The notes: generated from the sequence alone by a model not told the origin. Shown: positions 13,380 through 14,114, counted from the first letter of the stretch. The stretch: 15,726 bases of DNA from a virus (IMGVR_UViG_2609459833_000012:1-15726), one strand, 5' to 3'. Translations and numbers: made by a program.

Positions 13380-14114
13380 TCAGAATTTCAGGCCAATGCC
13401 TGCAAATAAACCATCAGTTTTCCAGTCGCCAGAGCCTGAGCTTTCATAAGTGACGTCCATAGTAACACTTTCATTGAAGTTAAATTGCGCGCCGACAGAC
13501 CATGCAATAGACGTTTTTTTGGTGCTGTTACTTTCAGAAAAACTACCGGCACCATGATTAAGATTGTCGTTAATTTTCAAGTCAGTGGTGACTTTTGCAA
13601 CCCCCATACCAGCCATTGCATACACACTGAGGTATTCGTTAAACCGCCACGAAGGACCGGATAGTAGACTCCAGTAATTAGCCCTGATATCAGTTCTCGC
13701 TGAAGCTGCCGGATTTTTAACCTCTCTGGATTCATCTCCTGGGTTAATATCAATAAATGCCTGCGCATTAGTCATAGAACGCGCCCATGTAAAAGATGTT
13801 ATAACACCAATCTCATCCGTTATCTCATAACGATACCTGATGCTCATCCCCTGAGGAGATTTGCCTTTGCCATCATGCCCCCGGACAGAAGCATCTGCAT
13901 ATTCGCCTGAATTGAAGTAGTGTCTGTTTGTAAAACGGTTAAAAGTATCAAGATTATAAAGACTTAAATCCTTAACAAAATTGTTCAGTCCAGAGAGCTG
14001 AAGATGAGCGTATCCGAAAGAAACTGTACTGTCACCTTGTGCTGCACAGGCAGGGGCTGCTACAAAACTCATCACAAAAGTTGTGCACGCAAAAATAATT
14101 CTGGTATGTTTCAT
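13380..14114 (-). CDS. lom: Lom/Ail/PagC/OmpX-family outer-membrane beta-barrel protein (Lom-like, 244 aa)
   Basis: N-terminal signal peptide (MKHTRIIFACTTFVMSFVAAPACA). C-terminal ...YESSGSGDWKTDGLFAGIGLKF ending in Phe. Internal motifs (SIRYRYEITDEIGVITSF, GPSWRFNEYLSVYAMAG, TSIAWSVGAQFN) parallel lambda Lom and Yersinia Ail as I recall them. AT-rich gene. Confidence 0.85.
   Translation of the reverse strand: MKHTRIIFACTTFVMSFVAAPACAAQGDSTVSFGYAHLQLSGLNNFVKDLSLYNLDTFNRFTNRHYFNSGEYADASVRGHDGKGKSPQGMSIRYRYEITDEIGVITSFTWARSMTNAQAFIDINPGDESREVKNPAASARTDIRANYWSLLSGPSWRFNEYLSVYAMAGMGVAKVTTDLKINDNLNHGAGSFSESNSTKKTSIAWSVGAQFNFNESVTMDVTYESSGSGDWKTDGLFAGIGLKF

Follow-up and report, generated by a model that had tools for sequence, protein, structure and literature searches.

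A prophage-borne Lom outer-membrane protein of the Stx-phage type with a long, predicted helical first surface loop

A lom-type gene for an eight-stranded outer-membrane β-barrel of the Ail/Lom family lies at 13380..14114 on the minus strand of a 15,726-nt stretch of viral DNA (IMGVR_UViG_2609459833_000012:1-15726; "the window" denotes this whole stretch). Since its 244-aa product had been predicted to exceed other family members in length through an expanded first surface loop (L1), and since this loop had been suggested to confer a new binding specificity, the locus raises the question of whether the extra residues are indeed located in L1, whether such an L1 is exceptional, and what it may do for the bacterium or the phage.

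The open reading frame is intact, with an ATG start and 244 codons on the minus strand (six-frame ORF list). At the DNA level, it matches a chromosomal prophage gene of E. coli EC2 with 100% identity; the product of this EC2 gene is WP_032270764.1 (RefSeq name 'Ail/Lom family outer membrane beta-barrel protein'), and positions 1315-14412 of the window are 97% identical to the same EC2 prophage. A 951-bp lom region was matched in 96 of 5,426 complete E. coli genomes. When 50,697 phage records were searched with tblastn, 396 matched Lom, 217 of them at a coverage of at least 80%; these 217 were overwhelmingly Stx1/Stx2-converting and related Escherichia phages, and many carry the annotation Lom. 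The window gene is an allele of the well-known Stx-phage Lom, named 'LomW' in the vaccine literature. As the exact protein is in RefSeq and hundreds of phage genomes carry annotated members of its subfamily, it was already known, and the window copy is a routine, previously annotated version of a known prophage gene. We are highly confident about its identity and architecture. An F-like plasmid origin, which the neighbouring ORFs had suggested, was rejected: a megablast search against plasmids came back empty, and the strong matches were all to chromosomal prophages.

Membership of the Lom/Ail family, the basis of the original prediction, was borne out by the Pfam model Ail_Lom (PF06316; E=1e-30, 107.4 bits against a cut-off of 23). 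The alignment to this model is limited to protein residues 88-244 (model positions 49-199), as the N-terminal part is broken up by L1. Matches were also obtained to the broader models OMP_b-brl and OmpA_membrane, and the best relative of solved structure at the sequence level was λ Lom (PDB 9wso chain C, E=3.8e-22), with Yersinia Ail and E. coli OmpX next. Scores for the NCBIfam equivalogs of Rck (NF011777; 84.9 bits against a cut-off of 258) and OmpX (NF006917; 62.6 bits against a cut-off of 176) stayed well below the respective thresholds. The label 'virulence-associated' was drawn from homology alone and is overstated.

Both ends of the protein resemble those of an exported barrel. At the N-terminus, a Sec-type signal peptide of residues 1-24 (MKHTRIIFACTTFVMSFVAAPACA, followed by AQ; 14043..14114, minus strand) was read from the sequence by inspection, with a basic n-region, a hydrophobic core and a cleavage site ACA/A. 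It is the most variable region of the alignment, and in both AlphaFold2 models it appeared as a helical N-terminus of low pLDDT. The C-terminus (...GIGLKF) has the aromatic last residue of an OMP β-signal. We also considered a lipoprotein and rejected it, as the Cys at residue 23 lies outside any canonical lipobox and is missing in homologues.

To place the extra residues, we used a MAFFT alignment of the query with the fetched λ lom, E. coli K-12 ompX, pSLT rck and phage 86 lom sequences and 115 family representatives. The L1 segment was defined as the residues between the β1 motif G34-Y35-A36 and the β2 motif Q88-G89-x-x-I-R-Y-R-Y-E; the segment between these anchors that holds the expansion (A36-P87; 13854..14009, minus strand) comprises 52 aa in the query, as compared to 21 in λ Lom, 12 in OmpX and 11 in Rck. 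This corresponds to an insertion of ∼31 aa when λ Lom is taken as the reference and of ∼40 aa when OmpX or Rck is, in proteins with total lengths of 244 (query), 206 (λ Lom), 185 (Rck) and 171 aa (OmpX) as fetched and translated. In the crystal structures of OmpX and Ail, the chain starts in the periplasm, and strands β1 and β2 are joined by extracellular loop L1 (Vogt & Schulz 1999), and the insertion is therefore placed in L1. The extra residues are part of the extracellular L1 and belong neither to the signal peptide nor to a periplasmic turn, just as had been anticipated. A second variable surface loop, L2 (approximately residues 126-136; 13707..13739, minus strand; from the alignment and the AlphaFold2 model), is ∼8 residues longer than its counterpart in λ Lom, and L3 is longer in λ Lom.

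The AlphaFold2 model of the window Lom (mean pLDDT 84.1, pTM 0.73; 19-sequence alignment) and that of a 933W-type allele (P0012, 65% identical to the query), with mean pLDDT values of 84-85 for the two, both gave eight transmembrane strands. The predicted strands span residues 29-40 (β1), 72-80 and 88-97 (β2, which is interrupted at residues 81-87), 102-125 (β3), 137-157 (β4), 162-183 (β5), 192-212 (β6), 217-226 (β7) and 233-243 (β8). Turns on the periplasmic side have four residues each, and L4 is an invariant SGSGDW motif, so that the prediction reproduces the antiparallel eight-stranded barrel of the family, with four extracellular loops and three short periplasmic turns. Within L1, residues L43-F67 (LNNFVKDLSLYNLDTFNRFTNRHYF; 13914..13988, minus strand) were predicted to be α-helical, with pLDDT values of ∼75-86 in 10-residue blocks. 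The architecture of the 933W-type allele was the same, with a helix at residues 41-67 (pLDDT 81-89), though the two models rest on nearly one alignment of 19-20 fairly close sequences and are not independent. Foldseek returned Ail (3qrc) and OmpX (1qj9) as top matches of the Lom model, at target TM-scores of 0.80-0.82, and this topology agrees with what had been proposed. PDB 9wso was not among the PDB matches that Foldseek listed, and a structure search of BFVD gave only distant barrels and no Lom. In these models, L1 of the Stx-phage Lom is predicted to form a helix of ∼25 residues above the eight-stranded barrel. We rejected the notion of an amphipathic L1 helix, since its hydrophobic moment of 0.28 was reached by 25% of shuffled sequences.

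How exceptional such a loop is can be judged from a HMMER search of 1.84 billion cluster representatives (50%-identity clusters), which gave 245 matches. L1 lengths were measured in the 112 representatives that retain the N-terminal part among the best 150 of these 245. In this sample, which consists of the query's best matches and is hence biased toward its own relatives, L1 was shorter than 20 aa in 70 representatives (mode 11) and at least 36 aa long in 26, or about a quarter of related clusters. It reached 40 aa or more in 19, and 50 aa or more in four, namely two E. coli Stx-phage types and two Salmonella types. Long-L1 clusters with a named source came from Salmonella, Morganella, Kosakonia, Serratia symbiotica, Arsenophonus and Sodalis, and are annotated merely as 'Ail/Lom family'. 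A motif G-(L/V/M)-(K/R/N)-x-x-(V/M/I) at the start of the helix was present in 14 of 30 long-L1 representatives and in none of 70 short ones. Judged from these sequences, the query L1 represents the upper end of a broad pre-existing length distribution and is no outlier, and a long L1 is the standard architecture of lom in Sepvirinae and 933W-like prophages. The claim of an unusually long L1 therefore stands against the five characterised proteins named for comparison, but it fails within the Stx-phage group, where the 244-aa form is common. As a novelty the loop does not survive, given that it is standard in Sepvirinae lom and also occurs in relatives from Salmonella prophages and, among others, Morganella, Serratia and Arsenophonus.

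The prophage context of the gene is equally familiar. In EC2, the genes are arranged in the order portal, N4-gp56-type capsid, tail fibre, tail-tip fibre, 93-aa OMP, 205-aa membrane-associated protein, lom, hok, five small ORFs and a 2,793-aa LPD38 protein. The Stx2-converting phage 86 (Traversvirus, Sepvirinae) has its genes in the same order; its 735-nt gene is annotated 'lom', and synteny spans the whole stretch between the tail fibre genes and the giant 8.4-kb gene, lom included. The gene occupies the usual position of lom in Sepvirinae, after the genes for the tail fibre, small OMP and membrane-associated protein and before a 402-nt ORF and the giant LPD gene. Downstream of lom in the window is an ORF for a small toxin of the Hok/Gef family (13008..13148, minus strand), the divergence of which tracks the lom allele; an Rfam scan gave no match to a Sok-like or other RNA. 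On the upstream side, the window differs from the intact prophage. The gene for the 205-aa membrane-associated protein, the usual predecessor of lom, is reduced to a 3' remnant (14201..14412, minus strand) by an IS256-family insertion sequence (14413..15726, minus strand; transposase gene at 14447-15655, oriented toward lom). This element has removed the genes that normally lie upstream of lom, and the prophage segment in the window is flanked by IS copies. The insertion sequence is located 330 bp upstream of lom and reads toward it, so that transcription of lom in the window may be non-native.

In composition, lom stands apart from its surroundings. The coding sequence has 42.6% GC (GC3 0.37), as compared to 54% (GC3 0.56) for the rest of the prophage segment, in line with the AT-richness that had been noted for it. 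The 86-bp spacer upstream (14115..14200, minus strand) has only 24% GC and contains a Shine-Dalgarno-like AGGA (14126-14129). This spacer presumably carries lom's own promoter; a single candidate element, a weak, hand-picked -10 box GATAAT (14148-14153), was noted there, and a scan for the σ70 consensus found no site on the lom coding strand upstream. Starting 23 nt past the lom stop codon, an intrinsic terminator with a 9-bp stem and a T-run (13327..13357, minus strand) is conserved in phage 86. An orthologue of the gene in φ24B was strongly expressed in lysogen cultures as determined by qPCR, and expression was unchanged on induction (PMC3342100). The original prediction had raised the possibility of H-NS-type silencing; the φ24B data would argue against complete H-NS silencing of lom, at least in a K-12 background.

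The comparison with phage 86 shows how sharply lom is delimited from the genes around it. Over its full length, Lom is 64% identical at the amino-acid level between EC2 and phage 86, whereas identity is 87-97% for ten genes in its neighbourhood. When the window is aligned with phage 86, both the gene that precedes lom and the stretch that follows it, with the terminator, are for the most part conserved, at ∼90% identity or more. The flanking gene upstream reaches ∼95%, and the lom spacer is unalignable. Similarity collapses exactly at the stop codon of this upstream gene; within lom it is restored only over the final 21 nt, and it resumes once more from the terminator on. Together with adjacent hok, lom is by far the most diverged gene pair in an otherwise conserved block. 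The compositional difference, the gene's own terminator and the confinement of the divergence to the cassette mark lom as a moron-like accessory cassette of separate compositional origin, in line with the separate origin proposed earlier.

We also determined how this divergence is distributed within the protein. Between lom alleles dS was 0.5-1.0, with an overall dN/dS of 0.15-0.19, and these sequence comparisons indicate that lom is under purifying selection overall. Relative to phage 86, dN/dS was 0.54 in the L1 segment, 0.28 around L2 and 0.12-0.19 in most barrel segments. Column entropy over 15 E. coli/Shigella alleles was highest in the signal peptide, L2 and L1, and lowest in L4, T1 and β4, making L1 and L2 the most variable parts of mature Lom. 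The alleles are visibly mosaic. In strain G6/7, for instance, the protein is identical to the window allele over most of its length, apart from one G/V change near residue 170, but ends with the C-terminal strands of another allele. The pattern indicates an old, recombining and functionally constrained lom cassette in which the exposed loops evolve fastest.

Which role would such a protein have? The reading that we favour, and regard as on balance probable, is that the window lom is an accessory gene ('moron') of a 933W-like short-tailed prophage and serves the classical surface role of its family. The gene would be transcribed alone, from the AT-rich spacer to its own terminator and independently of the phage late operon. 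The pre-protein would be exported by Sec, with cleavage of the ∼24-residue signal peptide at about A24/A25. Periplasmic chaperones would then hand Lom to BAM for insertion into the outer membrane, and the C-terminal Phe is typical of this pathway. In the resulting eight-stranded barrel, the long strands together with L1 and L2 would project above the LPS, where L1, a lineage-typical expansion of 30-40 residues with its predicted helix, and L2 would form a variable, antibody-accessible crown. Lom could thereby act as a surface-binding protein that alters the lysogen surface, in adhesion and/or complement resistance, with L1 and L2 setting specificity. We infer a ligand for Lom and a role for the L1 helix in this scheme. 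The new binding specificity that had been attributed to the long L1 is possible, and the variability of L1 and L2 is compatible with it.

The classical role is favoured because antibodies against an orthologue reach the surface and block adherence, and because λ lom affects adhesion. LomW, which was obtained in purified form at 28 kDa, has served as an antigen in DNA and gold-nanoparticle vaccines (PMC6692519, PMC5003871). Anti-LomW sera lowered the adherence of EHEC and EAEC and were bactericidal (PMC6692519, PMC5003871), and these effects imply that LomW is surface exposed; its function was called uncharacterised by the authors (PMC6692519). For λ, a link of lom to buccal-cell adhesion is mentioned in citing papers. 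The lower adherence in the presence of antiserum may be steric or due to agglutination, and does not require Lom to be an adhesin. Recent findings on λ also count against the classical role, as they suggest a function directed at phages.

A tentative alternative, to which we give clearly less credence, is that Lom is used for receptor masking or homotypic exclusion. Here, Lom would sit beside BamA/YaeT such that the crown of L1 and L2 covers the phage-binding surface, and the purpose would be to reduce wasteful adsorption of sister phages to lysogens, late-infected cells and debris. Expressed λ Lom gave a strong defence that was specific to λvir, with none against T7 (PMC12366544), and the authors proposed superinfection exclusion or the avoidance of non-productive adsorption (PMC12366544, 2025); at lysogenic expression levels, however, λ Lom failed to stop λvir (PMC12366544). 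PDB 9wso holds the λ receptor, maltoporin LamB, together with λ Lom and without gpJ. Its LamB sequence is that of the LamB in the gpJ-LamB complex 8xcj. Our literature search found no paper describing 9wso, and nothing specific on Lom, LamB and exclusion together. Genomic location also fits masking, as lom is found in the host-recognition modules of three tail types: between J and stf in λ, after the tail fibre genes in Sepvirinae, and between tail genes M and L in Salmonella prophages. Like the receptor blockers Cor and Llp, and like λ Lom in its proposed role, it is encoded beside receptor-binding genes, and in phage 86 the receptor blocker Cor is encoded in the same module. The receptor of short-tailed Stx phages is BamA/YaeT (PMC8065619).

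Against masking, the direct evidence on receptor binding and exclusion comes from λ Lom. Moreover, φ24B is noted for frequent repeated infection of the same cell (PMC3430580), despite strong expression of lom in the lysogen. The allele comparison points in the same direction. In five Sepvirinae phages, identity to the EC2/window allele was 64-92% for lom and 89-95% for the tail-tip fibre (54-100% for hok, which tracked lom), a mismatch that tight co-adaptation of Lom to one receptor/fibre pair would not predict; no co-variation of Lom allele and tail-fibre allele was seen in these five phages. Extending the analogy with λ, the helix-bearing L1 crown of Sepvirinae Lom might be a cis-acting mask of BamA, an essential outer-membrane protein, and the Ail/Lom barrels of prophage tail modules might in general be receptor-specific adsorption blockers, with the length of L1 tuned to the size of the receptor's surface dome; we consider this reading as a whole unlikely.

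Lom could also have a general role in the envelope, in which the barrel alters outer-membrane lipid/LPS packing or vesiculation and the long L1 has no specific ligand. Studies of relatives report a need for Y. pestis Ail in outer-membrane lipid homeostasis (PMC8508112) and vesicle production driven by the loops of PagC (PMC11322160). In Lom, however, L1 keeps its length and start motif but changes in sequence more rapidly than the barrel, which suggests a selected, exposed interaction surface and not a passive spacer, and makes this role improbable in our view. Least credible is that lom is silent or decaying cargo, H-NS-silenced or non-functional in its host and with a long loop that is of no consequence: the AT-rich gene and promoter region (spacer 24% GC), the IS-bracketed prophage segment and the destroyed upstream gene in the window would be in keeping with it, but the ORF is intact, dN/dS is 0.15-0.19 across alleles with dS values of 0.5-1, the gene is 100% identical to the lom copy in an intact prophage, the φ24B orthologue is strongly expressed (PMC3342100), and full-length homologues occur in many clusters (HMMER).

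If the crown of L1 and L2 does bind a specific partner, be it a host ligand or BamA, this would explain the near-universal retention of lom, with its constitutive expression, in 933W-like Stx prophages, as well as its status as the most diversified gene of its neighbourhood. There is a practical side to this diversity. LomW is an EHEC vaccine antigen in development, and the window allele is only 64% identical to the Lom of phage 86, a close relative of LomW. The differences between alleles are concentrated in exposed loops, which bears on the breadth of protection by LomW vaccines.

Several known systems can be set beside the window Lom. The heat-resistant agglutinins Tia, Hek and Hra1 of E. 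coli are OMPs of ∼250 aa that have been proposed to be eight-stranded barrels with long surface loops; they act as adhesins/invasins and are distantly related to Ail. Their names were absent among the named family matches of our Lom searches. Ail and OmpX share the eight-stranded barrel with the query (target TM-scores 0.80-0.82), and the GYA and KYRYE strand motifs are common to the query and the aligned family references. The L1 segments of Rck and OmpX are only 11-12 aa long, as opposed to 52 aa in the query, and the fetched rck and ompX records are plasmid-borne and chromosomal, respectively, and neither is from a prophage, whereas the query lom is prophage-borne.

λ Lom (NP_040601, PDB 9wso) is closer in this respect, as λ lom is likewise a prophage accessory gene beside tail-fibre genes, and its product shares the Ail/Lom barrel, the SGSGDW motif of L4 and the C-terminal strand with the query. 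Identity is nevertheless only 31% over 185 aa, in an alignment that starts at residue 66, and the 21-aa L1 segment of λ Lom is without a counterpart of the query's L1 helix sequence. The phages differ in receptor as well, which is LamB for λ and BamA for the phage group of the query (PMC8065619).

Long loops are shared with Salmonella prophage proteins P0025 (239 aa), P0034 (243 aa) and P0037 (250 aa), which are 36-39% identical to the query over nearly their full length. L1 measures 53-55 aa in P0034 and P0037, and P0025 aligns across the L1 region. The Salmonella long-L1 proteins have the same G-L-K-x-x-V motif at the start of L1 as the query, but the remainder of their L1 sequence is unrelated. 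The gene for P0025 is part of a phage tail module, between tail genes M and L of long-tailed λ/Gifsy-like prophages. In the papers searched, three aspects of the Stx-phage Lom appear to be undescribed: L1 as a putative helix of ∼25 residues, the L1 start motif that it has in common with long-L1 Ail/Lom proteins of other Enterobacterales (borne by a prophage in the Salmonella example), and lom plus hok as a hot-spot of diversity in the late region.

Closest to the query is the Lom group of Stx phages, with which it has the predicted helix, the gene neighbourhood and the conserved terminator in common. Phage 86 Lom (Stx2-86_gp29), of the LomW group, also has 244 aa, aligns over the full length and has the same long L1; at 64% amino-acid identity, its differences from the query are mainly in the signal peptide, L1, L2 and a recombinant C-terminal segment. 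The φ24B lom gene (CM18; 44818-45552, 735 nt) shows 100% identity to its counterparts in 933W, VT2-Sakai and Min27, and 97% identity to phage 86 lom (PMC3342100). The window allele itself is found in E. coli EC2, and phage PhiR12_3 has a version that is 92% identical to it.

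Comparison of the lom gene of the window (13380-14114, minus strand), which encodes a 244-aa outer-membrane barrel of the Ail/Lom family, with the lom alleles of loci L007-L010 revealed that these alleles are mosaic within the gene. Most of the Lom protein of strain G6/7 is that of the window, save for one G/V change near residue 170, and this window-identical part is followed by a β6-β8 segment that derives from another allele. In the O121 allele, the second surface loop (L2) is shortened by a 5-residue deletion. Directly downstream of lom, on the same strand, lies an ORF for a 46-aa toxin of the Hok/Gef family (13008-13148, minus strand; Pfam E=4e-8), and a scan with Rfam found no Sok-like RNA. 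Across five phages the divergence of hok parallels that of lom, with 54-55% hok identity where lom is 64% identical and 100% where lom is 80-92% identical. Since hok divergence follows lom divergence in this way, the sequence comparison suggests that the two genes travel together as a single variable accessory island.

The window is framed by two essentially full-length insertion sequences of the IS256 family (1-1314 and 14413-15726), each with a Transposase_mut domain, a 402-aa transposase and imperfect terminal inverted repeats. These copies are exact reverse complements over 1,314 bp (100% identity), and the window begins one nucleotide into the left repeat. The layout is therefore that of an IS, 13.1 kb of prophage and an inverted IS, which corresponds either to a composite-transposon-like unit or to a contig that is bounded by a collapsed repeat. 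When placed on the prophage of EC2, an E. coli strain with an identical lom, one insertion point falls within the gene for a 205-aa membrane-associated protein and the other just beyond a giant gene. In the window this gene is one uninterrupted ORF (1380-9746, minus strand), whose 2,788-aa product is annotated in relatives as an LPD38/LPD5 domain protein and is 91% identical to gp35 of the Stx2-converting phage 86. For CM7, its orthologue in the related Stx phage φ24B, expression upon induction has been reported (PMC3342100).

In the stretch 14413-15655 of the right-hand IS, the transposase gene runs in the same direction as lom (minus strand), and its end lies ~330 bp upstream of lom. Because of this shared orientation and short distance, lom could be driven by IS read-through or by a hybrid promoter in the source strain. 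In three E. coli wastewater isolates (SW0716xx) the match to the lom region falls into two parts, and the annotation under it shows a transposase of the IS1 family; insertion sequences have therefore hit the lom neighbourhood repeatedly, in independent events.

Among solved relatives, PDB entry 9wso holds λ Lom together with an E. coli/Shigella-type maltoporin LamB, and does so without gpJ, the λ protein of LamB complex 8xcj. This implies that the structure of a LamB-Lom complex has already been solved; a search of the accessible literature found no paper on the entry. The 239-aa Salmonella homologues with a long first surface loop (L011-L013) are carried by λ/Gifsy-like prophages, where their gene (8001-8720) is flanked by the tail genes M (Phage_min_tail) on one side and L (Phage_tail_L) on the other. 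Such a position amid the tail-tip assembly genes is an unusual site for an accessory gene.
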